DNA of 64,000 nt from a virus. The notes under the pieces are model-generated. The model had not been told where the DNA came from and made no database searches. It saw only the letters and a program-made list of their open reading frames with translations. Every line of letters begins with the position of its first letter. Positions within the stretch are counted from its first letter, which is position 1. The position numbers and the translations under genes are program-made. The stretch spans positions 35,271 to 99,270 of IMG/VR virus record IMGVR_UViG_3300031851_000004; one strand, given 5' to 3'. Below are positions 21,301 to 41,817 of the stretch, piece after piece.

Positions 21301-21303
21301 TAC

Positions 21304-21867: not shown

Positions 21868-22158
21868 CCTACTGATTATATCATTTAAATTATTATAATT
21901 TATAGATTCTATTCGTATGTTTGCTATTTCTTTTTTGGTTCTTATAGATATTCCGTATTCTGATTTGGGTTTTATGAAATCATATACAAAATCATAAGCT
22001 CCTGTATTTTTCAACCACTTATAATAGAAGTCTCTATATTCTTTTTTGCATTCCAAGAGCACTTGGCGACCCAATAAACAATTTGAATATAGAGTAATGT
22101 CTCTAAACAAGACCACCTCGCTAGGCGGTTCGCAAAGCTCTGCTTCTATTATTAACAA
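21844..22158 (-). CDS. hypothetical protein (HAD-like fragment possible)
   Basis: 104-aa ORF downstream of 22162-22359; start uncertain. Confidence 0.5.
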   Translation of the reverse strand: MLIIEAELCEPPSEVVLFRDITLYSNCLLGRQVLLECKKEYRDFYYKWLKNTGAYDFVYDFIKPKSEYGISIRTKKEIANIRIESINYNNLNDIISRLSILCPQ

Positions 22159-22161
22159 AAT

Positions 22162-22359
22162 TTAAACTTTTTGCCAGGTATTGTTTTCTTTCTTGAAATA
22201 TACAGCTTTTAATTCTGCATTTTCGCCTGTTAACGACCCCGAATCACATGTTGCTTTGAACATTTCTATCGCAGTCTCAGGGTTTAAGGCTTTATAATAT
22301 CTGGAGCTATGGGTTATTGATTTTTTGTTTTCTAATAGATAATCTACTTTATACGTCAT
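22162..22359 (-). CDS. small hypothetical protein
   Basis: Preceded by GTGTAA at 22376-22371 on the minus strand. Confidence 0.55.
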   Translation of the reverse strand: MTYKVDYLLENKKSITHSSRYYKALNPETAIEMFKATCDSGSLTGENAELKAVYFKKENNTWQKV

Positions 22360-22452
22360 TATTAATTATATTACACTTCTTATCGTCTTTTAAAAAACTT
22401 ATTGCTTTTTTTTAAAACTACTGTAATCTATATTAGATCTTTGAAAATTTAT

Positions 22453-22873
22453 GGGGGTGTTCTGGATTCGACTAAAGTTAGATTCTTGCACCGCAAGTCG
22501 GAGACGCACTTGGCTCCGCAAAAAAGTGCAACTTGTACATGGCAAGACTAAAAATCGTGTTAGAGCTTTAAGTTTCAAGAGCCGCATCGCTTCCAAGCGT
22601 GTTGGTTTTAGAAGCCGCAAGCTCGCCTTAGCAGCTTAATCTGCTAACCTCTTACCTTTTGACGCAGATATTAAGGATAAGGGGTCATCAATCTGCAAAA
22701 ACAGAAAAAGTTTACCTGTTAATAAACTGTAGTCCGCTGAGTATTCGGAGGCAAATAATTGTAATAGGAAGTTGGATGTTAATATCACAACTTTAAAAAA
22801 AATTAACTAAACTTGTAGACGTGTCTGATTGAAGGCTATTAGGACGCGGGTTCAAATCCCGCCACCTCCACCA
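22453..22873 (+). ncRNA. ssrA: tmRNA (SsrA), tag (A)GKTKNRVRALSFKSRIASKRVGFRSRKLALAA
   Basis: GGGGGTG/CACCTCC-A-CCA acceptor with G3:U; GGATTCGAC 5' motif; T-arm GCGGGTTCAAATCCCGC; PK1 (GGAG/CTCC, GCACTT/AAGTGC); tag ending LALAA-TAA in hairpin TTAGCAG/CTGCTAA; three further pseudoknots. Confidence 0.97.
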
Positions 22874-22876
22874 TTT

Positions 22877-22945
22877 AAAGCAACCAAAAAACAAAACTGA
22901 TAAAAAATTCGGGATTTCTCGTTGAAGTTTCTTGGTTGCTTTTTT
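22877..22945 (+). terminator. inverted repeat plus T-tract after tmRNA
   Basis: AAAGCAACCAA...TTGGTTGCTTT followed by T-run; unusually large loop of about 44 nt. Confidence 0.45.
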
Positions 22946-22969
22946 GTTGCATAATACATATATATAATA

Positions 22970-23149
22970 GTGAAAAATTTTGACAAAAAGTATTTGCTAA
23001 AGATGGCTGAAGAGCTTATAGAACTTGCTTGTAGAATACTACAGCATGTAAATAAAACAAAAGACTATTCTGAAAAAATTTTGGAAGAGGTTGATGATGT
23101 CAAGTTCAGAATTTCCGAATTTGAAAAAAAAATTTCCGAATCAAAGTAA
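22970..23149 (+). CDS. small hypothetical protein, 59 aa
   Basis: GTG-start ORF filling the gap before GT2. Confidence 0.45.
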   Translation: MKNFDKKYLLKMAEELIELACRILQHVNKTKDYSEKILEEVDDVKFRISEFEKKISESK

Positions 23150-23167
23150 ACATAAGTTCGAATCTTC

Positions 23168-24040
23168 ATGACGCACCATAACAGTTCTATAACTATAGCT
23201 ATATGTACGCGCGATAACCCAGAGTACATAAAACATTTGGTTGAAGATTTAAAAAACCAATCAGATAAAGATTTCGAACTAATCATTCAAAATAATGGCT
23301 TAAAGATAGATGTGGATTTGTCTGGATTCAATAATGCAATTTTTTTAAATAAAAAGTGTTTTGGTCTTTCTGAATCAAGGAATTTATGTGTTAATTCGTG
23401 CAAGACAGAATATATTCATTTTCTTGACGATGATTTAACGATTAAAAAAGATTTCACAAGCTCATTAAAAGGCTTTGTGGCGAAAAATCCCAATGTTTCT
23501 GCTGCGGGGGGAAAGGTTCTACCAGATTGGACTTATGTTGATCGACCAAGTTGGGTAACTAATAATTGTTTGGTTTTGCTTTCTATGCTTGATTTTGGTC
23601 CTGAAAAAAAACGCTTAGGAAGCGAGGTGTCTTGGCTTGTTGGAGCTAATCTATTAATAAAAACAAAAAAAATAATAGATTATGGTTTTTTTAAGCCTTA
23701 CTTGGGTAGAATAGGAGGCAACGAATCTCTTCTCGGCTCAGAAGAGAACGAGCTTCTTCATAGAATAGCTAAGGATGAAGACGTGTTTTACTGCCCAGAC
23801 TTCACGGTGCATCATTATGTCTCGCCTAATCAATTAAACAGAAAATGGTTTGTGAAAAGGGTTGCTTGGCAAGCTGTTTCAGACATGTTATCAAATCAAA
23901 ATTGGCTGTCATCTCTTCCAGATCAAGAAGAAAGGTTTTTAAGATCTATAAATTGTATAAAAAATGATAACTCTAATATAGATGAACTTCTACACTCTGT
24001 ACATTTCTTAACTCATAATCTTTTAAAAGGCGATGGTTAA
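23168..24040 (+). CDS. glycosyltransferase family 2
   Basis: IAICT.D, GLSESRN, FLDDD, GANL and EE.EL motifs. Confidence 0.88.
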   Translation: MTHHNSSITIAICTRDNPEYIKHLVEDLKNQSDKDFELIIQNNGLKIDVDLSGFNNAIFLNKKCFGLSESRNLCVNSCKTEYIHFLDDDLTIKKDFTSSLKGFVAKNPNVSAAGGKVLPDWTYVDRPSWVTNNCLVLLSMLDFGPEKKRLGSEVSWLVGANLLIKTKKIIDYGFFKPYLGRIGGNESLLGSEENELLHRIAKDEDVFYCPDFTVHHYVSPNQLNRKWFVKRVAWQAVSDMLSNQNWLSSLPDQEERFLRSINCIKNDNSNIDELLHSVHFLTHNLLKGDG

Positions 24041-24929
24041 AAATTTAATTTTATGTTTTAGGCATGAGGCTTTAGTTAATGGAAGCTTACAGCCCACTTT
24101 TTGTGGCATGGGGGATATTATAAGAGGGTTCGTGCATTGCTTTCTCTTATGCGAGAGTTTGGGGATAAAATTTCATATAAATTTTGACGATCACTCGTTA
24201 AGCAAATTCATGAATCCATCTTGTTTTTCTTTTGAGGGTATTGTCCCTGATGAAATTCTTTTTGTGGAGGGGTCTGAATTAAACACTTTAGTACATAATT
24301 CAACCGAAAAAAACTTATATTTAATGACTAATGGGGATTTTTCATTAAAATTTATAGCAAAAGATAGCCTCTCCTCTGCATTTGAATATATATTTCTTTC
24401 AGACTGTAATGTTTTAAATTTTGTAAAATCTAATTTCAATTTCTCTGGAAAAACCCTTCATGCTAGGTTCGGAGACGGAATGATGGTCGATAGTAAATTT
24501 ATTGACGACTTTTATTTGAAATACTCCACCCACCCTTTTTCGCCTTCTTCTTGGTTTAAAATATTGCCAGATTCAAGCAAATATAAAATAGTTTACAAAG
24601 GTTTTGAGGGTTCAATTTCTAGTTTCGACTTTGTTTCTTCGGATCATTTGAGTTTTAAATATTTTTTAAAAAATAAAATCGATATAGACTTTATAGATTC
24701 ACCGCCTTGTCACTTGGGCATGCAGAACTTAGATCAAGCTGATATTTTTTACACATTATGTGATTTTTATTTAATTTACTATTCTAAAATAGTTGTTAGT
24801 GTCGGGTCATATCCATTTGGAAATAGACCATCTGGCTTCGCTTTTTGGTGCCACTTTTTTAATAAAAACGACTGTTCTTTTTACTCTTTTGACTCCTTCA
24901 GGTCTGAAATAAAGCTTTTAGAACTTTAA
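24033..24929 (+). CDS. fucosyltransferase-like protein (NodZ/GT23/GT11-type)
   Basis: GMGDIIRG, LHARFGD, SSD, DFY..S and SGFA motifs. Confidence 0.6.
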   Translation: MVKNLILCFRHEALVNGSLQPTFCGMGDIIRGFVHCFLLCESLGIKFHINFDDHSLSKFMNPSCFSFEGIVPDEILFVEGSELNTLVHNSTEKNLYLMTNGDFSLKFIAKDSLSSAFEYIFLSDCNVLNFVKSNFNFSGKTLHARFGDGMMVDSKFIDDFYLKYSTHPFSPSSWFKILPDSSKYKIVYKGFEGSISSFDFVSSDHLSFKYFLKNKIDIDFIDSPPCHLGMQNLDQADIFYTLCDFYLIYYSKIVVSVGSYPFGNRPSGFAFWCHFFNKNDCSFYSFDSFRSEIKLLEL

Positions 24930-24951
24930 TGGTTATGTCTTATTATATATA

Positions 24952-25560
24952 ATGTTTGACGAAGGGAAGAAATATATATTTACGCACCCCCCGAAGTGCG
25001 CTGGAGCTAGCATTGCAATAGGGATAGGTTTATGGAAGCATCAGGGTGGTGAAATGTTTAAAAGATATAAAAACTTATTACATAGATCTTTGACTGAAAA
25101 TATAATTGAAATAGAAAAGTTAAACCTAAATTATGAAGATTTTTTTAAGTTTAGTTTGGTTAGAAATCCGTGGGATCGATTCGTTTCTCGATATTTCTTT
25201 GAATTAACTCATAATTTAGATTTTTATAAAAAAAATAATTTAGATACTTTTGATGAATTTGTTAAATCACAGTATGATAAGTTTAAATCTAAAGGCGACA
25301 GGGGTTTTCTAAAAATAGAACCATTCTATTATCATAATGGTAAATATTGCATGGATTTCATAGTGAAACAAGAAAATTTTGAGAATGATTTCCTTCATGT
25401 TTGCGGCAAAATAGATATTAAAGACCCAGAAATAACTCGTTATGATCAGGGAACGAAACGAATTAGCCGTGATTACAAAAACATGTATAATCTGGAAACA
25501 AAAAAAATGATTGAAGACATGGGTTCAGATTCAATAGAGATGTTTGAGTACTCTTTTTAA
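24952..25560 (+). CDS. sulfotransferase family 2
   Basis: HPPKCAGASI (5'-PSB) and VRNPWDRFVS (3'-PB) motifs. Confidence 0.85.
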   Translation: MFDEGKKYIFTHPPKCAGASIAIGIGLWKHQGGEMFKRYKNLLHRSLTENIIEIEKLNLNYEDFFKFSLVRNPWDRFVSRYFFELTHNLDFYKKNNLDTFDEFVKSQYDKFKSKGDRGFLKIEPFYYHNGKYCMDFIVKQENFENDFLHVCGKIDIKDPEITRYDQGTKRISRDYKNMYNLETKKMIEDMGSDSIEMFEYSF

Positions 25561-28270: not shown

Positions 28271-28789
28271 ATGAAAAAAGACAAAGATTATTTGTTCATA
28301 ATCTATTTTAGTGTAACTATAGACAAGAAACGCTTTTATAAATCATTAATAAATACAGATTCAAAATCAAAGTCTAAAGAAATTTTTTTAAAAAAAATAA
28401 AAAAAGACCTAAAAGGGTTTTTGATAAAAAACATAAGAATTGAAACAATAAAAAAGTCAAAATATAGAGGGAGAAAAATCACAGACAAACAATGGGAAAG
28501 GCTTTTGGGTCTATCCTACCCCAACACCAGACACAAACTTAGTAAAATCCCCAAAAACCAGTGGTTTAAACCGAAAAAACACAAAAGAAGAAATTTCAAT
28601 GGAACCTTCAAAAAAGGTTTCGTTCCTTGGAATAAAGGTTTAAAGCTAAAAGTTTTCAAGAAAGATGAAAACGGGAGATTCATTAGCAGCAGAGATACAC
28701 TTGGAAGGTTCACCAAAGGTATTCAAGTAGCTACTATTGGAGCTAAGTTCACGATAAATGATGAAAAGCTTAAAACTATTAACGAATAA
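28271..28789 (+). CDS. basic protein: unnamed N-terminal domain (paralog of 32873/33941) plus NUMOD3-like motifs
   Basis: IT.K.W...S(Y/F)PN shared with paralogs; GTFKKGFVPWNKG and two GRF repeats. Confidence 0.55.
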   Translation: MKKDKDYLFIIYFSVTIDKKRFYKSLINTDSKSKSKEIFLKKIKKDLKGFLIKNIRIETIKKSKYRGRKITDKQWERLLGLSYPNTRHKLSKIPKNQWFKPKKHKRRNFNGTFKKGFVPWNKGLKLKVFKKDENGRFISSRDTLGRFTKGIQVATIGAKFTINDEKLKTINE

Positions 28790-29150
28790 ATTCAGTTACA
28801 ATTCTATTTTTAATTCCATATATAAAAATTTTCTAAAACATGATTTTAAAAGCTCCAGTATATCTAATATTTCAGTATTTTTCTTAGAAAAATATGAAGT
28901 CATTAAATCGAGCAAGATTAACAATACAGATTCAGAAGACCATTTGTTAGTTTTTAGAGATGATGAAGGTATATTTCAAATAGGAGTATTCAATTCTGAA
29001 TCTAAAGAAATATGCAGAAATGATATAAATATTGAATATTTAGCAAGTTTAAATATTATAAATAGACACAAGCTATCTGAGAAAAATTTAATATCTTTTG
29101 TGTTTTGGGAACTTTTTAAAAATAATATTGAATGTGAGGAAGCAGAATAA
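28758..29150 (+). CDS. hypothetical protein
   Basis: 130-aa ORF overlapping neighbours. Confidence 0.5.
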   Translation: MMKSLKLLTNKFSYNSIFNSIYKNFLKHDFKSSSISNISVFFLEKYEVIKSSKINNTDSEDHLLVFRDDEGIFQIGVFNSESKEICRNDINIEYLASLNIINRHKLSEKNLISFVFWELFKNNIECEEAE

Positions 29151-29697
29151 TCAGCCCAGAAAGCAAGATATCCTTAAATTAAGAAAGGAAGGGCGGACTT
29201 ACAAAGAAATACAGGACGAGCTTGGTTGTTCTAAGTCGGTCATATCATATCACTGTGGAGAAGGTAAGACAGAACAAAAAAGAGTTAAAAAAAGGAATGC
29301 TTCTGAAGGTCATAAGTTATCAAGAAAAGTAAGCGCTTTTAAATGTAGAGCCTCTAAAGATTTGTTTAGGGGAAAATTGAAAACTTTTAAAAGGAGAAAT
29401 CCTAAAAATAGAACTCATACTATAGTTAATAATTTATCTAAAAACTTTACAACGCAAGATGTTTTAGATAAATTTGGAAAAAATCCTGCTTGTTACTTAA
29501 CTGGAACCCCTATAGACTTAAGCAAACCTGAAACATATCACTTTGACCACATCATTCCCGCGTCAAAGGGAGGTACAAATGATTTATCTAATTTACAAAT
29601 TTGTTTAAAAGAAGCAAATAACGCAAAAAGCGATTTAAGTTTAAAAGATCTTTATGATTTGTGTGAAAAAATATTAAAACATAAAAATTCTGCTTGA
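29134..29697 (+). CDS. HNH endonuclease with N-terminal HTH
   Basis: GRTYKEIQDELGCSKSVISYH (HTH); DHIIPASKGGTNDLSNLQ..N (HNH); start chosen at GTG 29134. Confidence 0.85.
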   Translation: MRKQNNQPRKQDILKLRKEGRTYKEIQDELGCSKSVISYHCGEGKTEQKRVKKRNASEGHKLSRKVSAFKCRASKDLFRGKLKTFKRRNPKNRTHTIVNNLSKNFTTQDVLDKFGKNPACYLTGTPIDLSKPETYHFDHIIPASKGGTNDLSNLQICLKEANNAKSDLSLKDLYDLCEKILKHKNSA

Positions 29698-30792: not shown

Positions 30793-31021
30793 GAAAAAAT
30801 TAAAAAATGCAGAGTTTGAATACGATGAAGAAACCAAAATTTTTACAATTATGGAAGAGGATGGGTTTCATGGTCATATTCAATTAAATAAAGTATATGC
30901 TTTTGCTTTTGTGCGTTTTGTTGTTCGTATGGCTCAAAGAAATTGGTTAAGAAATAAAAAACAACTTGACAAAGACAGTGAAGACGTGTTAGAATGTAGC
31001 GATCAATTAGAAATGTTTTAA
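30782..31021 (+). CDS. hypothetical protein
   Basis: 79-aa coupled ORF. Confidence 0.55.
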   Translation: MKIRKKLKNAEFEYDEETKIFTIMEEDGFHGHIQLNKVYAFAFVRFVVRMAQRNWLRNKKQLDKDSEDVLECSDQLEMF

Positions 31022-31029
31022 ATTAGCCC

Positions 31030-31623
31030 ATGATCTGTCACAAGCACAAATGTATTTTTATACACATTCCTAGAACAGCAGGAACATCAATAGAGCAGTC
31101 CATTAAGCCCGATTGGAGGTTTGGTAACTTTAAAGATGAAAAACATGTTTTAGCAAGCACTGCGAAACATTTATACAAAGATTATTGGAACGATTATTTT
31201 AAATTCTCTTTCGTGAGAAATCCTTGGAGTAGAATGCTATCAATGTCACAATATAAAAACTTTTATGGCTGTATAATAAAAGGCGGAAAGATCGATGTTA
31301 GTAAATATATTCAGCAATATTCAAGCATAGAAGTAGACCCTAGATCAAAAGGTAATATAGAGAACATTAAGCCAATTAAAAATGCAGTTTATTTAAATAT
31401 TCTAAATGAAGAGCTTAATTTTATTGGACGCTTTGAAAACTTACAGGAGGATTACGGCAAAGTCTGTGCGATCATCAACTGCAAAAACAAGCTATTGCAC
31501 AAAGAGGCTCGTAAGGAAAAAAATAAACACTATACTGAATATTACGATGATGAAACAAAGCAAATCGTTGCAGAGCGATATGCAAAAGACATAGAGCATT
31601 TCGGCTATGAATTTGGAGGGTAA
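31030..31623 (+). CDS. sulfotransferase family 2
   Basis: HIPRTAGTSI, VRNPWSRMLS and GRFENLQED motifs. Confidence 0.88.
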   Translation: MICHKHKCIFIHIPRTAGTSIEQSIKPDWRFGNFKDEKHVLASTAKHLYKDYWNDYFKFSFVRNPWSRMLSMSQYKNFYGCIIKGGKIDVSKYIQQYSSIEVDPRSKGNIENIKPIKNAVYLNILNEELNFIGRFENLQEDYGKVCAIINCKNKLLHKEARKEKNKHYTEYYDDETKQIVAERYAKDIEHFGYEFGG

Positions 31624-31655
31624 CATATTCATAAAAATAAAAAGAAAAAAAAGTC

Positions 31656-31684
31656 TTGACAAATATTGAAAAAATTGGTAAGAT
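31656..31684 (+). promoter_or_regulatory. sigma70-type promoter heading the sigma-factor operon
   Basis: A-tract, then TTGACA-17-TAAGAT. Confidence 0.7.
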
Positions 31685-31709
31685 GATTTAATAACAAAAG
31701 AAAGCAAAT

Positions 31710-31919
31710 ATGAATAAAGAAATAAAATTATGTGAATTGGTAAAATCTTCAGAGTATGAAGAATTTTACTACTCTGACTCCGACTTGCCCGTAGAAGAAG
31801 GTGATCCCGTTGGCGTGGATTTAGAATCAGGAGAGGAAGTTAAATTTATATTATTTAACGGAATATATTGGGGGGAAGAAAATGAAGAGAGAGTCTTATC
31901 CAAAACTTTACGAGTATAG
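31710..31919 (+). CDS. small acidic protein
   Basis: 69-aa ORF after promoter. Confidence 0.55.
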   Translation: MNKEIKLCELVKSSEYEEFYYSDSDLPVEEGDPVGVDLESGEEVKFILFNGIYWGEENEERVLSKTLRV

Positions 31920-32136
31920 AATAAAATATAATGCTACAGCCGACACTATAGCTAATGACAGCTACCATTACTTTATGTCTAAGAACGCAGAAGAAGCATT
32001 CGACTACCATTTAACAATGTTAAAAAATAAAGGTTTAATAACTCAAGACATATCAATAGAAAAATTTAATCCATATTCAAATAAATGGGAAGATGAGACA
32101 TTCTTTAATGCAGGTAGTGAAAATACAACAAATTGA
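31882..32136 (+). CDS. hypothetical protein
   Basis: 84-aa overlapping ORF. Confidence 0.55.
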   Translation: MKRESYPKLYEYRIKYNATADTIANDSYHYFMSKNAEEAFDYHLTMLKNKGLITQDISIEKFNPYSNKWEDETFFNAGSENTTN

Positions 32137-32647
32137 CAGAGCTGAATCTTACGACAGCAAGCTAACATTAATTAGCCCTCACTTATTAAAATTTTGCAAA
32201 AGTAGAATATATAACGAGCAAGATGCTGAAGATGTTTGTCAAAAATCAATTTACATTTTGATAGAAAAAAATAAAGAATATAATAAAAATAAAAGTTTTT
32301 GGAGTTGGGCTTGGAAGATTACAAGATTTCAAATAATGGCTTATTTAACTCGAAGAAAAAGAAATAGAGAAGATGTATCAGGGGATTCGTTTTTACATAG
32401 TTTAGAAAAAACTGATCAAAAAATGCCTTTTTCTGATGTTTTAAAATTAGAATTAAAAAAAGAACGTGATGATCTAGTAAAGAAAGCATTTAAAACACTA
32501 TCATTAAAACAACAACATTTTCTTTCATTATCAATGAGCGGTAAAAGTAAAAATTTTATAATGAGACATATGAACATAACAAATGTTAATTATTATTCCC
32601 TCAAAAGGAGGATGTTAAAAAAACTAAAACAACAAATAAACACATGA
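32093..32647 (+). CDS. ECF-type RNA polymerase sigma factor
   Basis: Region 2 DAEDVCQ..F.SW.WKITRF; region 4 LS.KQQ..L; start may be 32108. Confidence 0.85.
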   Translation: MRHSLMQVVKIQQIDRAESYDSKLTLISPHLLKFCKSRIYNEQDAEDVCQKSIYILIEKNKEYNKNKSFWSWAWKITRFQIMAYLTRRKRNREDVSGDSFLHSLEKTDQKMPFSDVLKLELKKERDDLVKKAFKTLSLKQQHFLSLSMSGKSKNFIMRHMNITNVNYYSLKRRMLKKLKQQINT

Positions 32648-32880
32648 AAGAAGTAGACGCGGCAGCTATAGAATATATCATGAATAAGTTTTTACCTTAT
32701 TCAATCGTATTTATATTATTATTTACTATTCTAGAATTAACTGATTTTAGGTTTTGGGTTATAAGCCTTTCAGTAATATTTATAGATAAGTATTCATTTA
32801 AGATAGGTAGATCTGTCGGTGAGTACGAAAACAATCCAGCATTTAGAAACTCTGTTGACGAAACTTTAGACGATGAATAA
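32644..32880 (+). CDS. small two-TM protein (possible anti-sigma)
   Basis: Hydrophobic helices; ATGA overlap with the ECF gene. Confidence 0.55.
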   Translation: MKEVDAAAIEYIMNKFLPYSIVFILLFTILELTDFRFWVISLSVIFIDKYSFKIGRSVGEYENNPAFRNSVDETLDDE

Positions 32881-33283
32881 TTCCAAATTACAATCAAAAT
32901 TTAGGTTAAAAAGGTTTTCATGCGACCAATATTGGAAATTTACCTATACTATATTTAAAAACAAATCAGCCGAAGATATTTTTGTTTCTGTTGTTAAGGC
33001 AAGGTCTTATGATTTCGCTAAATCGATATTAACTCAAAAATTAAAAGAGGACGATCCAAATATAAACGTGAAGAATATTAATGGGTGGATGTTTCATTCA
33101 AATTTTAATTTTAATAGATCTGCAAATAAAAATTTAAATTTAATTAATATAAAAGATTGGCAAGATATAAGAAAATGCAGTTTTCCAAATGAAAATAATT
33201 ATTTATTTAAGTTTCATATTCAGTATATAACGCCTCAAGAAATAATTAAAAGAAACAAAACCAAGATAGAAAATTTTGTATAA
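32873..33283 (+). CDS. unnamed-domain protein (paralog of 33941 N-terminus)
   Basis: DQYW..Y, KA.SY..AK and SFPNENN.LFK shared with 33941. Confidence 0.65.
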   Translation: MNNSKLQSKFRLKRFSCDQYWKFTYTIFKNKSAEDIFVSVVKARSYDFAKSILTQKLKEDDPNINVKNINGWMFHSNFNFNRSANKNLNLINIKDWQDIRKCSFPNENNYLFKFHIQYITPQEIIKRNKTKIENFV

Positions 33284-33963
33284 TGACTGAATCAGAAGAA
33301 AAAAAATTTTATGAATATTTGGCTTTATTCCAGCCAGATATAAAGAAGATAATAGCCTCAAAGAGAAGGAACACGCACCTTATGTCTCTAGATGAAATTG
33401 TTAGTGACTTCAACTATAATTTAATAAGAAAAGACAAGGAGAAGGTGGTTAACTATAGAGACGAAAGATTTGTTGAATTTTCTTTTGAATCTTTTAAATT
33501 TGTAATTTGTTCTTTTATAAAAAATGCAGTTGGCTGGTATCAGTGCAGAAAAGCGCAAGAAAAATATTTAGTAAGGAGGGATAACTCTGAAGTAAAAACA
33601 GAAGAAGGATACAAGAGTACCTTTGAGATGCTTGAAATAACCAAAGGGGTTGAAGACAAGGGTTTTACTTTTGACGACGATCACAAGCATAAATATTTTT
33701 TAAAATTAATTAAAAATTACAGTGACCACTTAACTCCAAACGATGTTGAATTAATACATTTACTATTGAAAGGGTATAATCAAACTACAATAGCTGACGT
33801 TATGAATGTAACACATCAAGCTATAAGTTTTAATGTTATTCAGTTAGAAAAAAAATTAAGGTGCAGAGTCAAGGAAGATTACTTAAAAGATGAATCTTGG
33901 CATAAAATCCCAGAAGGGAAAGAGGCAATAATGAACCTTTTTGAACATGAGAAAAAAACGTAA
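33283..33963 (+). CDS. sigma70-like factor (divergent region 2 plus region 4 HTH)
   Basis: LTPNDVELIHLLLKGYNQTTIADVMNVTHQAIS; paralog of 34975. Confidence 0.65.
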   Translation: MTESEEKKFYEYLALFQPDIKKIIASKRRNTHLMSLDEIVSDFNYNLIRKDKEKVVNYRDERFVEFSFESFKFVICSFIKNAVGWYQCRKAQEKYLVRRDNSEVKTEEGYKSTFEMLEITKGVEDKGFTFDDDHKHKYFLKLIKNYSDHLTPNDVELIHLLLKGYNQTTIADVMNVTHQAISFNVIQLEKKLRCRVKEDYLKDESWHKIPEGKEAIMNLFEHEKKT

Positions 33964-34978
33964 AAAAGTTAATTGTCAAAAGGTCTACAGGAGTACTCTT
34001 TTTGATTTTGATCAATATTGGAATATAAATTATACAGAATGCTATAAAGATGGTTCTGAAAAAGACTTCAAAACCATTATAAAAGCAAATTCTTATAAAA
34101 ATGCCAAAAAGTTTTTAGCAAAAAGATTAGCTGAAGACTCTGTAAAAATAAAGGCGGTACAAGGCTTCATGCTACATGGAAACTATAAAGGCAATAACAA
34201 CAGAAAATTGACCACCAAATCTTGGGAACTAATAAAAGATGCATCATTTCCAAATGAAAATAATTTTTTATTTAAAAAAGAAATAAAGAGAGAAAAGTGG
34301 AAGAGTAATAGGTTTAATGCTACCAATTACAAACACCTCAAAACAATAGGCTTTAAAAGCGGATCTGAAAGCTACTCAACCATACATAGAAAAGGCAAGC
34401 ATTTACCCCTAAGCGAAAGGGTTGGAAAAAAGTGGACGGGAGCAAAATGGGTTAAATGGGACGAAGACGAAATGAGGGAAACAAAAACTCGAATAAGTTC
34501 AGCGCTTATGGCTTGTGATAATAACAGATTTCACACGGCAAAATATTTAAACATAGGAAGAGGTAATTTGTACAAAATGATGAAAAGAATAGAGGGATTG
34601 GAGTGGTGGAACAAGCACTACCCAATAAAAAGACACCCGCCTCCTAGAGTATCTAAAGAAGAAAGGTCTAAGACTCAATCTAGGGTGATGAAGGAATTAA
34701 TGTCCAAAGGTCATGTTCCCTTTTCTAGCTTATCTTCTTCGCAACAAAAAAAAAGATATGAAAATATGTGTGCAACAAAAAGGCAAAAAAAAGAAATAAG
34801 ACTTGCTTTCTGGAAGCCCAAAATAATTAATGCATTAAAATTATGCGAAAATAGCAGAGTAAATGCCGCTTTTTATTTGGGAATAAAAACCTCGCATCTA
34901 AAAAAATTAATGGTAGAAACTAAACCTGATGTTAATTGGGCTAAAGAATTTCCTACAAAATATTTCAAAGTAAAATGA
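33941..34978 (+). CDS. unnamed domain plus two Fis-type HTH motifs
   Basis: ALMACDNNRFHTAKYLNIGRGNLY and ALKLCENSRVNAAFYLGI. Confidence 0.65.
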   Translation: MNMRKKRKKVNCQKVYRSTLFDFDQYWNINYTECYKDGSEKDFKTIIKANSYKNAKKFLAKRLAEDSVKIKAVQGFMLHGNYKGNNNRKLTTKSWELIKDASFPNENNFLFKKEIKREKWKSNRFNATNYKHLKTIGFKSGSESYSTIHRKGKHLPLSERVGKKWTGAKWVKWDEDEMRETKTRISSALMACDNNRFHTAKYLNIGRGNLYKMMKRIEGLEWWNKHYPIKRHPPPRVSKEERSKTQSRVMKELMSKGHVPFSSLSSSQQKKRYENMCATKRQKKEIRLAFWKPKIINALKLCENSRVNAAFYLGIKTSHLKKLMVETKPDVNWAKEFPTKYFKVK

Positions 34979-36123
34979 AGCTTGAAACATCATACGCACC
35001 AGGAACTCTTCATGAATATTTCGACTTAAACGGAACGCCTAAACCAAACAAAGTAAAAAAATCGAAAGAAGAACTCGGTAATGAAAAAATAGAAACTTCT
35101 TTTGAACCCTCTAATGAACAGGTAAATTGTTTTAATAATTGGTTGGAAGATTACCAAGAAGACTTGAAAAAAATTATAGGCAAATATAGATTCACAATCC
35201 ATTCGCTTACTGCCGAAGAGCTTACTAGTGAAATAAACCTTTCTTTGCTTAAAAAAAGGTCAAAATTAATTGAATATATTTCAAATAAAGGGTTTAATCA
35301 GTCTAATTTCAAACATTCTGCTTTTGTTTATGCTAGAAATTTAATTAAGTGGAGTCATTATTCTATAATAAATAAACCCTACCATAAAAGAAGACAAGAT
35401 GGTTATTTCTATGACGGAGAAGAGTGGAAAACTTCTTTTGATGTTGCGGTCGAATCTGAGGGAGAAGTGGATAAAGAAGTTGAAGAGTCTGATGCTAACG
35501 AAAAGCAAGAATATTTATTAAAAATAATAAAAGAGTATTCAAATGTTTTAACCGATAAAGAAAAGTTAGTTTTCTTATATCTAGAGAAAGGTTTAACACA
35601 CATAGAGATTGCTGAAAAACTAAAAGTGACACATCAAATGATATCAATAATTTATATTGAAATTAAAAACAAAATTAAAAATCACTTTGGCAAAATGTCA
35701 TTAAAAGACAATTCTTATGATAAAATATCAAAAGGCAAAGAGGCGGTTGATCAGTTTTTTACAACTTCAAAAGACTCAATAACAGATAAAGACAGAGAAG
35801 ATTTAAAAAAAATACTACACCTTCATCCTTATCAATTTACATCAAAAGCGGTTGCTGAAATCTTTTTCAAAAACAAATATACTTATAGGCAAATAGTATC
35901 TTCTTCGATTCGATTGGGCATTAGTTCTTTTTTAAGAAAAGAACGCCCTGCAAGCCAAAAATTCAACAGAAAAACTGAGGATTTAATACTTGAAATGTTC
36001 TTGAAGGGTTTCTCTTGTGAGGAGGTCTCTAGAAAAACTAATATATCTATTGGGGCGATAAGATCAAAAAGAGGACATCTTGTCAATAAAAATATATTAA
36101 CGAGAATATCGCGTGAAAAATGA
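34975..36123 (+). CDS. sigma70-like factor with extra C-terminal HTH
   Basis: LTDKEK..GLTHIEIAEKLKVTHQMIS; C-terminal GFSCEEVSRKTNISIGAIRS. Confidence 0.65.
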   Translation: MKLETSYAPGTLHEYFDLNGTPKPNKVKKSKEELGNEKIETSFEPSNEQVNCFNNWLEDYQEDLKKIIGKYRFTIHSLTAEELTSEINLSLLKKRSKLIEYISNKGFNQSNFKHSAFVYARNLIKWSHYSIINKPYHKRRQDGYFYDGEEWKTSFDVAVESEGEVDKEVEESDANEKQEYLLKIIKEYSNVLTDKEKLVFLYLEKGLTHIEIAEKLKVTHQMISIIYIEIKNKIKNHFGKMSLKDNSYDKISKGKEAVDQFFTTSKDSITDKDREDLKKILHLHPYQFTSKAVAEIFFKNKYTYRQIVSSSIRLGISSFLRKERPASQKFNRKTEDLILEMFLKGFSCEEVSRKTNISIGAIRSKRGHLVNKNILTRISREK

Positions 36124-36800
36124 TAGAAAAAGTAAAAATCTTAAAGTCTAATTGTCACTACAGAATAGGTGATATAGTTTTCAGACAAGGCTTCCGATGG
36201 GCGGATGATACTGAGTCTATATTATTAAGCCCTAAATATAGAAAAAGTATTTTATTCAAATACCTCAACCATTTCGATCATCCATCTTTAGATCCTTTTA
36301 AAAACGTTGAATTACCCCATCCAAGAGGTATTTTAAATATTAATGTATTAAGGAATTGCGTAAACATGGATTGTAATCCAAAAAACGACACTCTTTATGT
36401 TACGATAAGATGCGGTGATATTGTACAATTACCAGCAGAAGATAGAAGTAATTTTTGGTTATTTAATAAAGACTCTTTGATATCATGCATAAAAAACAAA
36501 TTAAAAAAGAGCCAAATAAGTAAAGTTGAATTTGTATGCACTATGCACTTTGGAGACTTTAAAGAAAAAAAACTTTTTTTATATTCAGAAAAAGACGTAA
36601 ATGAAAATATAAATTTATTAAATAATATATTTTTAAATGTAAAAAAAATAATTGATTGTGATATTGTTAGTAACAAGGCTGATGAAATAGAAAATATAGA
36701 CCATCATTTTTCAACTTTGATAAAAGCTAAAAACGTCATCCTCGATCAAGGAGGATTTTCTAGTGTGGTATCAATTTTAAGATCCCCCTTCCTAACTTGA
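36120..36800 (+). CDS. GT11/fucosyltransferase-like protein
   Basis: YRIGD, IRCGD, D..F..L..AKN and GGFS motifs. Confidence 0.45.
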   Translation: MIEKVKILKSNCHYRIGDIVFRQGFRWADDTESILLSPKYRKSILFKYLNHFDHPSLDPFKNVELPHPRGILNINVLRNCVNMDCNPKNDTLYVTIRCGDIVQLPAEDRSNFWLFNKDSLISCIKNKLKKSQISKVEFVCTMHFGDFKEKKLFLYSEKDVNENINLLNNIFLNVKKIIDCDIVSNKADEIENIDHHFSTLIKAKNVILDQGGFSSVVSILRSPFLT

Positions 36801-36989
36801 AGCAGGTCGCCAATTAACACACCATTTATAACTCTGAACGCCTATTATAGATTCTTTCTTGTTTTCATCTAATTGAGAAACGGCACTTCTTAAATTGGTT
36901 TGCAAAGTATCAATCAGCACTTTAAGCTCAGAATTTTCATTCTCCAACTTTTTGATTTGCATATTTAATTTTTTTTCTTCTTGGTTCAT
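36792..36989 (-). CDS. small coiled-coil protein
   Basis: 65-aa ORF in a gap with no + strand gene. Confidence 0.45.
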   Translation of the reverse strand: MNQEEKKLNMQIKKLENENSELKVLIDTLQTNLRSAVSQLDENKKESIIGVQSYKWCVNWRPASS

Positions 36990-37042
36990 TTTCTATATTA
37001 AATTTACCTTGCAAAACTTCAAAAAATATTTATAATAAAACT

Positions 37043-37336
37043 ATGGATAATACACACAGCACAGAAACTAAGCCAACGTCCGAATGGAGGAAACGAGAAA
37101 TGGGAGCTTTGTGGAAAAAAGAAGGCAAATCCCAACAATTCTATTCAGGATTTTTAAAAATCAATAAAGACACAGATGAAGAGAAAGAAATTAGGGTAGT
37201 AGTCTTCTTAAATAAGATGAAGTCTAATGAAAAGTCTCCCGATCTAATCATGTATGAATCAACTGAGCAAAGTAGTGCTACTTTTATATCTCACGATGAT
37301 GATAACGACAAGATACCCGATAGCTTTATAGATTAA
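37043..37336 (+). CDS. DUF736-like protein (putative ssDNA binding)
   Basis: EMGALWKK..YSG.L..N..K..SPD; acidic tail. Confidence 0.6.
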   Translation: MDNTHSTETKPTSEWRKREMGALWKKEGKSQQFYSGFLKINKDTDEEKEIRVVVFLNKMKSNEKSPDLIMYESTEQSSATFISHDDDNDKIPDSFID

Positions 37337-37395
37337 TTTTTTTTATTTTTTAAAAAAAACTTGACCTCTATTGCGTTTTATGCGATAGTATTGTC

Positions 37396-37689
37396 ATGAA
37401 GAATAAAAAACAAACATATAACAAAGATGGATCTACTAGAAAATCTGGTAGTGGTAGAAAGAGTGGAGCGACTTCCTTTGTTAGGGTCACTTTCGATGAG
37501 TTAAGCGGTTTCATAGGGTCAAAGACTCCTATGTTAGTTAGTAGGGTTTGGTTAGAAAATTTAGGTTTAAATAACTTGGGAGAATCTCAAGACCCCATAT
37601 CAAAACAAAAACCTAAATTAGACTTGACTAAAGAAGATGAGTCTGATAAGATTCTATTTTCACTTAACAAATTCAACGATGAGGAATAA
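37396..37689 (+). CDS. hypothetical protein with AT-hook-like GRKSG motif
   Basis: Leaderless promoter TTGACC-17-GATAGT upstream. Confidence 0.55.
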   Translation: MKNKKQTYNKDGSTRKSGSGRKSGATSFVRVTFDELSGFIGSKTPMLVSRVWLENLGLNNLGESQDPISKQKPKLDLTKEDESDKILFSLNKFNDEE

Positions 37690-39972: not shown

Positions 39973-41750
39973 TGTTTCATCAAACAAATTTTAATTTTAT
40001 TTCTCCACTTGGCTTGGATGAATATAAAAGTAATAATGAATTACCTTTGTTATCAAGAGAAACATATAAATTTAACAAAAGGGTAAAAGATAAGTTAGAG
40101 ATTGATCCCCTACGAGAGGTATTGCTTTTTCATAATCATTTATTTAGCCTTAAAGGTCATGAATATGCAAATAATAAATCAAATATTATTAATAATTTCA
40201 TAAATTGGATAAAATCTAAAAAAAATTTTAATAAAGAAACTTATATATTAGAGCAAATAACTAAAGAAGATTTAAACTCGTATTCCTCTTACCTTACGAG
40301 AAAAAAATTATCTAATCACCTTATCTATATATATTTCTCTGCGGTTAAGAATTTTTTTTACTATTGTTATTCAAATAAACTTATAAGTACAAAAAGTGTA
40401 TTTTTTGAGCAATTTGATTTTTCGGGAGATAGTGTTATTCAGAATGAGTCGGTTGGTATAATATATAAAATATCTAATCAAATAAGATTTGATCCCACAC
40501 ATCCTTTGTACAAATCCCTAAAGCCTTGGGATACCGATTATGTAGGTCAATCCTCGCAACCGCTTGACAAAAGATACCCCGAAGGCATAGAAGAAACACA
40601 TAATAAGTATTTAAGGGAGTCTATTGAAAAGTTTGGACTAGAAAATTTCTCAATAGAGGAAATACAGACCGAAGTAATTTTAAAAGAGTTAAATAGAGAA
40701 GAATCTAAATGGGTGAATCTGAATGATTGTATATACCCTAGAGGTTATAATATAAATATTCCATCGTTTGACGATTGGAAACCTATTTCTCGCAACGAAA
40801 GATGGATAAGAAATATGGAGACAGGTAAAGTTTTTTCAGTAAATAATTTAAAAACTTTTTGTAAAAATCCACATTTTTATGATCAAGGCTTGAGCAAACC
40901 AAAAGATTATAAAATAAATTATACTCAAATGTCAAATTGCTTGACAGGATACATATCACCAACAGACAGACAAAATGGTATAAATCTTCCCCACAAAGTT
41001 TTTGTTGATATATATTGTCCTGCTAGATATACTACATCTGACCTTGATTCTTTTGCAAATTTTAGGTACAAGAAAAGTGTAATTGATTTTTGTGAGACTT
41101 TAAAGTTTCCAATCGAGCTTGTTAACGCAAGACTTGTGGAGGATTTTGTAATTGATAGCCAGGAAGATGTAATTGATATTATTTGCGAAAAAAAGTTTTG
41201 TCGCTTAGGTGAATTTAAAAAATTATTTCAATGTTATGAATCAAATGAAAAATATCCTTTGGCTTTTCCCATCGCAAGAATAAATGAAAACTACTTTGTC
41301 CACAAAGATAATTTCAAAAATTATTATGCTTGGTGGATGTATGATCTTGAAGGAAAAGAAATTTTACTAAAAATAAATCATCCCAAAATAGGTGATATAG
41401 AATTTTATTGGAATGACTTGGGTAAATTAGCATTAGAATTAAATAAAAACGAAGTGTTTAAGGGGACTAATATACCACAAAATAAAGATATAATTCACTC
41501 AACAATAGGCAGAAGTCTTAGGGGCATAGTCACAGGAAGGAATAGAACTGCTTATGGGATTAAATTCAATCCTTGTGGAGATCATTTCAAACTAGACATA
41601 AAAAGATTTCTTAAAAATAAATATGTTGAAAAAGTTTTAAATCAAGGTTATGATGTCTTATTCCCCATCAACAAATACAAAAAAGAAGAACAATTAATTA
41701 TTAAAAAAATATTTAAATTATTAGAATGTGAATCATATTTGCGAGAGTAG
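39972..41750 (+). CDS. GIY-YIG endonuclease with N-terminal integrase SAM-like domain
   Basis: GIIYKI..YVGQS..KRY..KFG.ENF..E..GYNI; ITKEDL..Y..YL...LS....Y..AVK.FF.Y. Confidence 0.7.
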   Translation: MFHQTNFNFISPLGLDEYKSNNELPLLSRETYKFNKRVKDKLEIDPLREVLLFHNHLFSLKGHEYANNKSNIINNFINWIKSKKNFNKETYILEQITKEDLNSYSSYLTRKKLSNHLIYIYFSAVKNFFYYCYSNKLISTKSVFFEQFDFSGDSVIQNESVGIIYKISNQIRFDPTHPLYKSLKPWDTDYVGQSSQPLDKRYPEGIEETHNKYLRESIEKFGLENFSIEEIQTEVILKELNREESKWVNLNDCIYPRGYNINIPSFDDWKPISRNERWIRNMETGKVFSVNNLKTFCKNPHFYDQGLSKPKDYKINYTQMSNCLTGYISPTDRQNGINLPHKVFVDIYCPARYTTSDLDSFANFRYKKSVIDFCETLKFPIELVNARLVEDFVIDSQEDVIDIICEKKFCRLGEFKKLFQCYESNEKYPLAFPIARINENYFVHKDNFKNYYAWWMYDLEGKEILLKINHPKIGDIEFYWNDLGKLALELNKNEVFKGTNIPQNKDIIHSTIGRSLRGIVTGRNRTAYGIKFNPCGDHFKLDIKRFLKNKYVEKVLNQGYDVLFPINKYKKEEQLIIKKIFKLLECESYLRE

Positions 41751-41817
41751 CTCAGTTGGATAGAGCATCTGCCTTCTAAGCAGAATGTCGTGAGTTCAAG
41801 TCTCACCTCTCGCGCCA
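41741..41817 (+). tRNA. tRNA-Arg (anticodon TCT)
   Basis: GCGAGAG/CTCTCGC acceptor, TCTGC-CTTCTAA-GCAGA anticodon arm, GTTCAA T-loop, encoded CCA. Confidence 0.97.

Follow-up and report, generated by a model that had tools for sequence, protein, structure and literature searches.

An operon of tightly overlapping genes is present on the + strand at positions 31710–36123 of the window (the whole 64,000-nt stretch analysed, from an uncultured marine phage). The gene order is two small open reading frames (u1 and u2), an ECF-type sigma factor (S1), a protein with two hydrophobic segments (2-TM protein), X1, S2, X2 and S3 (Table 1). A preliminary description of this DNA had reported the order from S1 onward (ORF positions 32093–36123), with overlapping stop and start codons. 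Order and coordinates are as described, and all of the junctions (8/8) overlap, by 1 to 44 nt.

Table 1. Features of the operon and their positions in the window (HTH, helix-turn-helix).
Feature	Position	Strand	Description
Sigma-70-type promoter-like site	31656..31684	+	TTGACA, 17-nt spacer, TAAGAT, TG preceding −10; consensus match only
u1	31710..31919	+	Conserved 69-aa protein, first operon gene
u2	31882..32136	+	Conserved 84-aa protein
S1	32093..32647	+	ECF-type (group 4) sigma factor, 184 aa (Pfam, PHROG, NCBIfam)
2-TM protein	32644..32880	+	Conserved, 78 aa; two hydrophobic segments, acidic tail
X1	32873..33283	+	Stand-alone X domain, 136 aa
X1, predicted sigma-docking surface	33152..33223	+	Residues 94–117, motif W..IR..SFPNENN.LFK
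S2	33283..33963	+	Divergent ECF-like sigma, 226 aa; sigma2-like (about residues 1–97), sigma4/GerE HTH (about 134–200), conserved C-terminal tail
S2, C-terminal tail	33883..33960	+	Predicted X1 docking helix, residues 201–226, LKDESW.KI..GK.A...LF
X2	33941..34978	+	345 aa; X domain, conserved linker, Fis-type HTH_8, second faint HTH
X2, X domain	33977..34288	+	Residues about 13–116
X2, HTH_8	34490..34588	+	Residues 184–216
S3	34975..36123	+	382 aa; ECF-type sigma core, X-docking-type tail motif, extra C-terminal HTH domain
S3, sigma core	35131..35685	+	ECF-type, residues 53–237
S3, X-docking-type tail motif	35701..35772	+	Residues 243–266; aligns to the S2 tail
S3, HTH of extra C-terminal domain	35986..36069	+	Residues 338–365
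ORF overlapping the S3 stop	36120..36800	+	226 aa; no family match

The promoter-like site is placed in the 86-nt gap 5′ of the operon, and position 31656, where the preliminary description begins, is its −35 hexamer. With 10 of 12 matches it is the best sigma-70-type match in the region, and a perfect −35 plus TG is found solely here within 31000–37500. The pattern TTGACA-N15-19-TAnnnT has 24 matches record-wide, this site included, mostly 29–130 nt 5′ of gene starts. The total of promoter-like sites in the region shows no excess (28 vs 31.3 in shuffles). A phage-specific promoter motif was sought in the record and none was found, nor is an RNA polymerase gene, including a beta match, seen in the record, which is 73% complete. 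The lack of a beta match, together with the many sigma-70-type promoters, one of them 5′ of the operon, suggests use of the host polymerase.

The two small open reading frames are conserved; u1 is without a Pfam or PHROG match and u2 has none above noise in either. Orthologues of u1 are found 5′ of sigma genes in related loci (L001, L005, L007, L011, L012, L015, L016, L018), and those of u2 either 5′ of S1 (L001, L005, L007, L018) or 3′ of the second pair (L012, L015, L016). Relatives do not conserve the open reading frame that overlaps the S3 stop at this position, and a phmmer search among the loci finds the window copy only.

S1 matches Pfam Sigma70_r2 (E = 5e-9, 36.3 bits, cut-off 24), phrog_1740, annotated as RNA polymerase sigma factor (1e-9), and NCBIfam TIGR02937 (56.1 bits, cut-off 42.9, model positions 10–165 of 165). 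The 2-TM protein displays a conserved motif, FIDKY.FK.GRSVGEYENNP, and had been suggested as a possible anti-sigma. It has no Pfam, PHROG or NCBIfam match and none to an anti-sigma family, and only about 15–20 residues are N-terminal to its first TM segment. Its gene is immediately 5′ of X1 in all two-pair loci and 2–4 kb off in single-pair loci, and it keeps company with X1 where S1 has moved or is missing. An anti-sigma role towards S1 is not supported by these properties.

S2 and S3 show 31% identity over 217 residues (E = 3e-26), far beyond chance, and are true paralogues. Against TIGR02937, S3 gives 51.0 bits (cut-off 42.9) over model positions 3–164 of 165 and its orthologue in L013 gives 57.9 bits; S2 gives 27.7 bits (E = 1.7e-6, model positions 8–162), which is below the cut-off. 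S3 also matches phrog_1740 (5.4e-13) and the Pfam models Sigma70_r4 (27.6 bits, cut-off 24.1), GerE (35.3) and, at residues 338–365, Sigma70_r4_2 (24.0); its sigma region-4/GerE HTH is at residues 191–235. Pfam Sigma70_r2 reaches no better than E = 0.043 with S3 and is found at E ≤ 0.01 in none of 17 S2/3-family members, and searches of the PDB with S2/3 sequences yield LuxR/GerE-type HTH only. Alignment of the S1 and S2/3 family profiles (hhalign) extends over 160 columns with a probability of 95% (E = 4.1e-8). The sigma2-like domain has invariant positions in the S2/3 family where it is aligned to sigma region 2.

The S2 structure model has a mean pLDDT of 66 and middling fold scores. It matches RpoE sigma2 (5uxx_C, rmsd 2.7, 81 residues) with a VIA Z of 9.4, which is near the stated background of 7–8 and under values attainable by helical bundles, and sigma4 of sigma-H (3mzy_A) with a Z of 8.3. 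In Foldseek, 50 of the 50 matches listed are sigma factors, the best having E = 3.8e-3 and none 1e-3 or less. The TIGR02937 matches (S3 above cut-off), the profile–profile link to S1 and the sigma2 and sigma4 folds together indicate, from sequence and modelling, that S2 and S3 belong to the group-4 sigma factors as divergent members. The lack of a sigma2 fold in the two proteins, a possibility raised in the preliminary description, is not what was found: sigma2 plus sigma4 appear to be present in both.

X1 is likewise a true paralogue of the N-terminal part of X2, with 38% identity over 111 residues (BLASTP E = 7e-21), far beyond chance, and the motifs quoted earlier for the X pair and for the S pair are present. 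The X family is small (67 representatives) and restricted to viruses. Searches gave no convincing fold or sequence match for X and recognised no known fold; the AF2 model of X1 is alpha/beta (pLDDT 70.5), at moderate confidence only, from a 9-row alignment. As to the two Fis-type HTHs described in X2, one is a clear HTH_8 (31 bits, Pfam cut-off 22) and the second is faint, at about residues 292–323 (NCBIfam Fis model, E = 0.04). Two HTH stretches are scored in relatives, e.g. P0027, P0058, P0074 and P0078. Of the 38 longer or N-terminally offset X members scanned, 27 carry HTH_8 (E ≤ 0.01), and the X2 form is the commonest architecture. A third, divergent X-type gene (28271–28789) has an HNH nuclease gene as its neighbour in the pair and no sigma; X thus does not partner sigmas exclusively.

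Canonical X genes whose downstream DNA can be seen have an S2/3-family gene immediately 3′ on the same strand in 23 of 23 cases (16 records; L006, a near-copy of L005, was omitted). Viewed from the sigma side, all 33 metagenome loci that could be assessed have an X-family open reading frame immediately 5′; 34 were found, the 34th having just 109 nt upstream. Thus X co-occurs with S everywhere examined, and the pairing persists although the sequences diverge widely, to identities as low as about 30%. A branch with support 95/88 sets the S2-type proteins apart from the others, and the duplication of an X plus sigma pair that had been proposed is supported, as one event. The accompanying proposal, that each copy gained DNA-binding domains, is not supported. 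HTH_8-fused X is found on either side of the division between S2 and S3 (the L018 X and all S3-side partners), and the scanned members with HTH_8 include the X partner of the S2-clade sister. Loss of the HTH from X1 is more probable.

The idea that X is a sigma partner agrees with a model of the X1–S2 complex (0.80 vs 0.00 in controls). The scores are 0.77, 0.80 and 0.83, and the best of three controls is 0.00; of 157 solved complexes 116 attain this mark, and of 215 mismatched pairs 2 do so, counts that hold only roughly here since the alignments used were made for this analysis. The runs share at least 72% of contacts, with a partner pLDDT of at least 81. The score is unlikely to reflect a memorised structure since no like complex is known. 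In the model X1 touches the S2 tail only, with S2 contacts at positions 205–206, 208–209, 211–220 and 222–226; when S2 is modelled as a monomer, its tail has a pLDDT below 50. D203, S205, I209, G212 and F220 of the tail are invariant or nearly so in 17 sequences, and the predicted interface consists of the most conserved motif of the X family and that of the S2/3 family. S2-type tails read ..W..LF in 8 of 8, with ..VS(V/I).K / C.FPN in the partner X, and S3-side tails read ..Y/F..FF in 14 of 14, with ..KTF.K / A.FPN in the partner. Because of these consistent differences the X1/S2 and X2/S3 pairs may be orthogonal. The co-variation tracks the single paralogue split and therefore represents one event, not independent evidence.

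The system had been compared with T4 gp55/gp33 and SPO1 gp33/gp34, highly divergent phage sigma-type factors with a small co-activator. T4 gp55 is without sigma4 and gp33 takes its place on the beta flap; S2 and S3 in contrast retain the sigma4 HTH, and X is predicted to be on the sigma and not on the flap. T4 MotA and phiEco32 gp79/gp36 are closer. MotA is a phage activator of two domains: the N-terminal one has a groove that takes up helix S5, the last of sigma region 4, and the C-terminal one binds upstream promoter DNA (PMC6755090). Similarly, the N-terminal domain of X2 is predicted on the helix after sigma4 (modelled for the X1/S2 paralogues) and its HTHs are C-terminal. However, none of the searches matched X to MotA by sequence or fold, the DNA-binding part of X2 is a Fis-type HTH and not the MotA C-terminal domain, and the target of X is a phage ECF-like sigma with a purpose-built tail, whereas that of MotA is AsiA-remodelled host sigma-70; no AsiA-like gene was identified.

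In phiEco32, gp36 is described as a phage two-domain ECF-like sigma whose C-terminal domain is contacted by gp79, a four-helix protein on the beta-prime clamp with an N-terminal helix that reaches gp36; gp79 stabilises the open complex (PMC12276001). This also is a phage-encoded two-domain sigma with a small partner at its C-terminal region, and the Foldseek matches obtained with the S2 model include a chain of the gp79-dependent complex (9m7y_F, E = 1.5e-2). X, however, is alpha/beta, is predicted to clasp a helix that the sigma itself provides, is usually HTH-fused and has no sequence relation to gp79. ECF41, ECF42, ECF238 and others resemble S2 and S3 in having a group-4 core and a conserved extension, which in them modulates activity, and are usually without an anti-sigma, according to an ECF classification which by its own statement does not capture phage ECFs (PMC7826278). 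Their extension acts in cis, whereas the S2/S3 helix is predicted to dock a separately encoded partner. No matching system was found in the literature searched.

The probability that X is a dedicated sigma partner, with its HTH-fused form working like MotA, is put at about one half. X may instead be an unconventional anti-sigma that grips the sigma tail and keeps the holoenzyme from forming, or the −35 from being recognised, until a signal, or a phage protein made later, releases it; HTH-bearing X may then also repress the operon. Typically, a sigma gene shares a transcript with its anti-sigma gene and the two are coupled in translation; the X and S genes are tightly coupled. The predicted site immediately after sigma4 would also suit such a role, as would X1, which without a DNA-binding domain fits a pure protein–protein regulator. 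This explanation is nevertheless unlikely. X matches no anti-sigma family or fold, and the usual gene order, sigma and then anti-sigma, is reversed here. Known anti-sigmas are typically wedged between sigma2 and sigma4, whereas the modelled X1 contacts the tail only, and a conserved dedicated docking helix with HTHs on most X proteins fits a positive partner better.

It is quite improbable that S2 and S3 have ceased to be sigma subunits and, as LuxR-like transcription factors of sigma descent or as mimics of a sigma, form DNA-binding heteromers with X-HTH and regulate genes read with host sigma-70 or S1: S3 and an orthologue pass the curated sigma70-ECF model at full length, the family as a whole conserves the sigma2-like domain well, and the fold matches of this domain are mostly true sigma factors. 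These points are set against the GerE/LuxR-type HTH as the only robust sequence match in the PDB and Pfam, the S2 score under the TIGR02937 cut-off, the extra HTH domain of S3, and the existence of repurposed sigma-like domains, with PhyR among the fold matches (3t0y_C, Z 6.5). Finally, X and S may never touch, the X-HTH proteins being independent Fis-type regulators with an N-terminal dimerisation or ligand domain and the adjacency reflecting co-regulation only. Adjacency by itself is weak evidence for binding, the divergent X-type gene adjoins an HNH gene, and the complex model is a prediction from shallow alignments. The separation of the complex score from three controls, the match of the predicted interface to the most conserved segments of both families, the paralogue-specific changes on both of its faces and the constancy of the pairing over wide divergence make this very improbable. 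Overall, the observation in the preliminary description is confirmed and its interpretation is partly supported.

With X as a dedicated sigma partner, the host sigma-70 holoenzyme would read the operon from the promoter at 31656, and the three phage ECF-like two-domain sigmas would redirect the host RNA polymerase core. S2 and S3 have an extra conserved helix right after sigma4, to which the X domain encoded immediately 5′ is predicted to bind via its W..IR..SFPN..N.LFK surface; translational coupling would give roughly equal amounts within each X/S pair. The form that is commonest and probably ancestral, represented here by X2 and S3, has X fused to one or two Fis-type HTHs, and would hang extra DNA-binding modules on the sigma beside the −35 reader, which may add upstream promoter specificity or activation. 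X1 would be a derived, HTH-less copy serving S2. This is the weakest step, as MotA-like logic fails to explain a pair in which X1 has no DNA-binding domain; X1 may be a stabiliser or adaptor. The X domain, clamping an extra helix at the end of a sigma factor as modelled, is likely to represent a novel means by which a phage steers the RNA polymerase of its host.

The preliminary description gave this locus as a set of overlapping genes in which sigma-like factors alternate with copies of a paralogous domain, here termed X, and that account is correct. Every junction in the operon overlaps, by 1 to 44 nt (features are listed in the table). The stand-alone X domain protein, X1, displays 38% identity to the first third of X2 (E = 7e-21), S2 displays 31% identity to S3 over 217 residues (E = 3e-26), and the motifs quoted for both sets of paralogs are present. 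Two small conserved proteins without a family match, u1 and u2, open the operon. The u2 gene is found relocated, downstream of the second sigma pair, at three related loci (L012, L015 and L016).

Positions of features in the window
Feature	Positions	Strand	Details
ORF with repeat	7231-8769		512 aa, no Pfam match
Tandem repeat within this ORF	8299-8484		12 nt, about ten copies
PHP-domain gene	8808-9551
Pol III alpha gene	11292-13859		begins at the NTPase domain
Sugar-nucleotide/glycan genes	17420-25560 and 31030-31623
tmRNA gene	22453-22873		Rfam RF00023, 133.3 bits (gathering score 47), model 1-374
X-type gene with HNH gene (module)	28271-29697
Third, divergent X-type gene	28271-28789
Possible 130-aa ORF	28758-29150
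HTH-HNH nuclease gene	29098-29697
Sigma-70-type promoter match	31656-31684		TTGACA, 17 nt, TAAGAT; TG upstream of the -10
Operon	31710-36123	+
u1 and u2	31710-32136	+
S1	32093-32647	+	sigma
X1	32873-33283	+	stand-alone X domain
S2	33283-33963	+	sigma-like
X2	33941-34978	+	X domain with Fis-type HTH
S3	34975-36123	+	sigma-like, extra HTH domain
tRNA-Arg(TCT) gene	41741-41817
Region densest in host-type promoters	43400-64000		many small ORFs

S1 matches Pfam Sigma70_r2 with 36.3 bits (cut-off 24) and TIGR02937, NCBI's curated sigma70-ECF model, with 56.1 bits (cut-off 42.9) at model positions 10–165 of 165. By these matches it is a plain ECF-type (group 4) sigma. S3 is matched over the full sigma70-ECF model, from sigma2 through sigma4: residues 53–237 align with positions 3–164 of 165 of TIGR02937 at 51.0 bits, and an S3-type ortholog on another contig gives 57.9 bits. 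Pfam Sigma70_r4 also detects S3 (27.6 bits, cut-off 24.1), with Sigma70_r2 reaching only E = 0.043. S2 is under the TIGR02937 cut-off, at 27.7 bits (E = 1.7e-6, model 8–162).

The relationship of S1 to S2 and S3 is seen only when family is compared with family. Direct BLASTP of S1 against S2 and S3 gives nothing, nor does the single S1 sequence against the A2 profile. Alignment of eight S1 orthologs with 17 S2/3-family proteins by hhalign gives a probability of 95% (E = 4.1e-8) over 160 columns, sigma2 to sigma4. Pfam Sigma70_r2 is found in none of the 17 S2/3-family members at E ≤ 0.01, and only LuxR/GerE-type HTH was seen in PDB sequence searches with this family.

The AlphaFold model of S2 has a mean pLDDT of 66, with about 78–93 in the N-terminal 88 residues. 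This N-terminal domain superposes on the sigma2 domain of an ECF sigma (5uxx_C, Z = 9.4, rmsd 2.7, 81 residues) and also on sigma2 of 2mao, 2o7g, 5wuq and 8b3z; the second domain superposes on sigma4 (3mzy_A, Z = 8.3). Sigma factors make up all 50 of the matches listed by Foldseek for S2, none of these reaching E = 1e-3. The preliminary description named the lack of a sigma2 fold as a refutation, and the S2 model does not show such a lack; there is good support for reading the S proteins as sigmas. From the sequence matches and the S2 model, S2 and S3 are taken to be very divergent group-4 sigmas.

The X domain has no match in Pfam, PHROGs or NCBIfam. A search of 1.84 billion representative proteins with an X profile yielded 67 family members at E ≤ 1e-3, 61 of them at E ≤ 1e-10. 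Three motifs, F..DQYW..YT, IKA.S...AK and W..IR..(S/A)(F/Y)PN..N.LFK, together with a gene position directly upstream of an S2/3-type sigma gene, define the family, and both X1 and X2 have all of these. A Fis-type HTH_8 motif lies behind the X domain in 27 of 38 scanned members (chosen for greater length or an N-terminal offset), and several have two. Thus X with HTH is the usual form and the stand-alone X is the minority. In X2 the HTH_8 motif is at residues 184–216 and passes the gathering score (31.0 bits, Pfam cut-off 22).

The model of X, which is moderately confident (pLDDT 70.5), shows an alpha/beta domain. Foldseek against the PDB shows no row at E ≤ 1e-3, the sequence profile gives nothing in the PDB under E = 0.4, the best BFVD hit has E = 2e-2 with all hits uncharacterised, and the best score in the ESM Atlas is 0.78, short of the level for a lead. 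Chains of the ribosomal protein eL20/LX were considered as a fold relative and rejected, as their best Z of 6.9 (VIA-align, wide) is within the stated background of the tool.

A third and divergent X-type gene is also present in the window. It aligns with the X profile by hhalign (probability 84%, E = 7e-6) and retains W..L...SYPN. It is followed by a possible 130-aa ORF and then by an HTH-HNH nuclease gene, with no sigma; the 130-aa ORF was considered as a sigma at this place and is not sigma-like. The same adjacency to an HNH gene is repeated at L015 (455–1021, then 1002–1598) and L012 (132–461, then 445–1032). X may be a general adaptor domain.

The pairing of X with sigma genes was followed from both sides. 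Starting from X (14 further viral contigs, one MAG contig and the window), downstream sequence is available for 23 canonical X genes, and in all 23 cases the next gene belongs to the S2/3 family and has the same orientation. The count omits L006, which nearly duplicates L005; in L011 the contig ends within the second X gene. Starting from sigma, an X-family ORF lies directly upstream of the sigma gene in 33 of 34 loci on metagenome contigs. In six of the 33 only the C-terminal part of the X ORF is on the contig, and the 34th locus has 109 nt of upstream DNA. Co-occurrence of X and sigma, on which the preliminary description had staked its proposal, is thus seen in 23 of 23 and in 33 of 33 assessable cases. 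A sigma-side scan of viral contigs gave only five contigs, all known from the X side.

The number of pairs varies; there are either two pairs, as in the window, or a single pair of X-HTH and a long sigma. The position of S1 shifts. It is before the TM gene in the window, between the pairs in L011, L012 and L016, tens of kilobases away on single-pair contigs, and absent from one record rated 100% complete. Because S1 moves about or is absent, the constant unit is the X–sigma pair, not the three-sigma operon.

Binding of X to its sigma is predicted from structure models of X1 with S2. Complex predictions gave scores of 0.77, 0.80 and 0.83, and three controls were all 0.00. Of 157 solved complexes, 116 reach this mark, as do 2 of 215 mismatched pairs; both counts apply only approximately here because alignments prepared for this analysis were used. 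The runs have at least 72% of contacts in common and the partner pLDDT is at least 81. Memory of a solved structure is an unlikely cause of the score, since no similar complex is known.

The S2 side of the predicted interface is residues 205–226, the tail after sigma4, which is disordered in the monomer model. The invariant residues D203, G212 and F220 of the sigma family are in this tail. S3 has this tail motif at residues 243–266, between sigma4 and the extra HTH domain. The X1 side consists of residues 38–40, 80–83 and 94–117, the last being the W..IR..SFPNENN.LFK block, where conservation within the X family is highest. The two sides of the predicted interface are motifs that had been picked out by eye in the preliminary description.

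Across the 23 pairs, S2-type tails (..W....LF, 8 of 8) and S3-side tails (..Y/F....FF, 14 of 14) each go with their own set of X interface residues. This pattern fits cognate specificity, but it is not independent evidence of it because one ancient duplication underlies the pattern; the S2-type proteins form one side of a branch with support 95/88.

In the mechanism proposed here, X would be a dedicated sigma partner that clasps a docking helix following sigma4. A fusion of X to Fis-type HTHs, as in X2 with S3, would bring additional DNA-reading modules to a position immediately upstream of the -35 reader. A partner of this kind could also inhibit. The HTH fusions and the purpose-built docking helix kept by the sigma argue for activation over inhibition by X, and neither X1 nor X2 matches an anti-sigma family, be it of the anti-sigma-domain, zinc-finger or RskA type, in Pfam, PHROGs or NCBIfam. 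The role of X1 for S2 is the least firm part of this mechanism. X1 is without an HTH, whereas the X partner in the sister lineage (L018) bears one; X1 has thus probably lost its HTH, judging from these sequences, and the earlier proposal that each copy gained DNA-binding domains does not fit this case.

An anti-sigma function had also been proposed for the 2-TM protein, with S1 as its target. This protein is conserved and its gene is directly before X1 in all two-pair phages. It shows no anti-sigma family match in Pfam, PHROGs or NCBIfam, has about 15–20 residues ahead of the first hydrophobic segment, which is short compared with a usual anti-sigma domain, and its gene keeps its place when S1 moves or is missing. 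The proposal thus finds no support.

The closest known systems are in phages T4 and phiEco32. T4 MotA grips the final helix of region 4 of sigma-70 with one domain and binds the MotA box with its second domain (PMC6755090). A like arrangement is suggested in silico for X2 with S3 by the predicted docking of X1 on the S2 tail (0.80 versus 0.00 for a control) and by the HTH_8 in X2, the modelled pair being X1 with S2. MotA families and chains are absent from the matches of X in Pfam, PHROGs, NCBIfam and PDB sequences and from its fold matches, although a relationship may exist even without a fold match. Another near case is phiEco32, where gp79 is described as stabilising the phage's own ECF-like sigma gp36 by contacting the gp36 C-terminal domain (PMC12276001). 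The ECF reclassification states that it did not capture phage ECFs, and in the passages considered here it presents C-terminal extensions only as cis-acting modules (PMC7826278). A literature search turned up no publication that deals with an X-like domain or with partners of the sigmas of these phages. We class the system with the phage sigma factors that have accessory factors, a known kind, the new element being an undescribed partner domain.

The 86-nt gap ahead of the operon holds the region's best sigma-70-type promoter match. The pattern TTGACA-N15-19-TAnnnT has 24 matches across the record, mostly 29–130 nt upstream of gene starts. Since the site ahead of the operon matches a promoter type that recurs through the record, the operon looks like one read by the host holoenzyme. 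The canonical -35/-10 elements suggest a host with an ordinary sigma-70 consensus, not one of Bacteroidota type, which differs. The family (C)TTGACA-N17-TAAG(A/G)T is found in the whole record, often with an A-tract (TTAAAAAAAT) directly upstream. Where it is densest it precedes many small ORFs, and that part of the window looks like an early-gene region.

Neither intergenic word enrichment nor order-4 Markov over-representation gave promoter motifs for the phage sigmas; the searches returned only host-type TTGACA/TAAGAT elements, A-tracts and one coding tandem repeat. Late promoters may be absent from the record, as most structural genes seem to be missing from it. One metatranscriptome library has a 704-nt contig over positions 31600–32170 (~99% identity) and only scraps of the rest of the operon. 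This contig starts upstream of the predicted promoter, and DNA carry-over is possible; it is uninformative on transcription either way.

The window covers bases 35271–99270 of the IMG/VR record, which is 99,270 bases long. This record, estimated to be 73% complete, is from a large phage with ~31% G+C and nearly all genes on the + strand. It encodes a DnaB-type helicase, primase, Pol III alpha, a ClpB-like ATPase, ribonucleotide reductase, RecA, UvdE, a C5 methylase and many sugar-modifying enzymes, and no RNA polymerase beta-type gene was found in it. The PHP-domain gene stands apart, upstream of the Pol III alpha gene, in what looks like a split replicase; between the two are genes for a GMP reductase-like protein and an RNase T-type exonuclease. 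The tmRNA gene is full-length and is also called by ARAGORN, with a tag ending in ..LALAA. The 12-nt repeat would give a four-residue peptide repeat. The sugar-nucleotide/glycan gene set is unusually large and extends to the DNA upstream of the window (G000, 5761–26240). It includes several glycosyltransferases, a GDP-mannose dehydratase, epimerases, aminotransferases, a formyltransferase, a WbqC-like protein, a TylF-type methyltransferase and two sulfotransferases.

Near-identical DNA is present in marine and seawater metagenomes from several studies. Among 50,697 GenBank phage records there is no cultured relative by blastn of the operon or tblastn of S1, X2 and S3, and all GenBank phage matches to the Pol III alpha gene are below 31% identity. 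A pattern scan of 185,579 species genomes gave a single locus, L026 (PBIO01000024.1), on a 47-kb MAG contig with a TM gene and an X-HTH gene followed by a sigma gene. L026 is probably a phage contig. Its binning into a Halobacteriovorax MAG may point to the host or may be an error of binning, and is not taken as a host assignment.

Taken as a whole, these marine phages may use modular, orthogonal promoter-recognition units, a reading to which we give roughly three chances in ten. Each unit would pair an ECF-like sigma, bearing a short docking helix C-terminally, with its cognate X-domain plug-in, which brings Fis-type DNA readers, so that specificity is split between the sigma and a detachable partner. 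The timing of middle and late gene classes would fall to two non-cross-reacting pairs together with a plain ECF sigma, and X would serve again as the adaptor of at least one further DNA enzyme, in the HNH module.

What is known of how phages control host RNA polymerase comes from a few model phages, and the mechanisms of MotA/AsiA, gp33/gp55 and gp79/gp36 were each informative on how sigma factors work. The prediction made here is directly testable with four small proteins and core polymerase. If true, it would reveal sigma co-factors of a new class, with a new fold that grips sigma, as well as a testable example of promoter recognition divided between a sigma and a DNA-binding partner, and compact, possibly orthogonal sigma/partner pairs of interest for synthetic gene circuits. 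An entire lineage of marine phages, abundant and uncultured, seems to have a solution of its own: divergent ECF-like sigmas, outside the standard ECF classification, with a dedicated partner domain, which has no known fold relative and is predicted to clasp a purpose-built helix behind sigma4.
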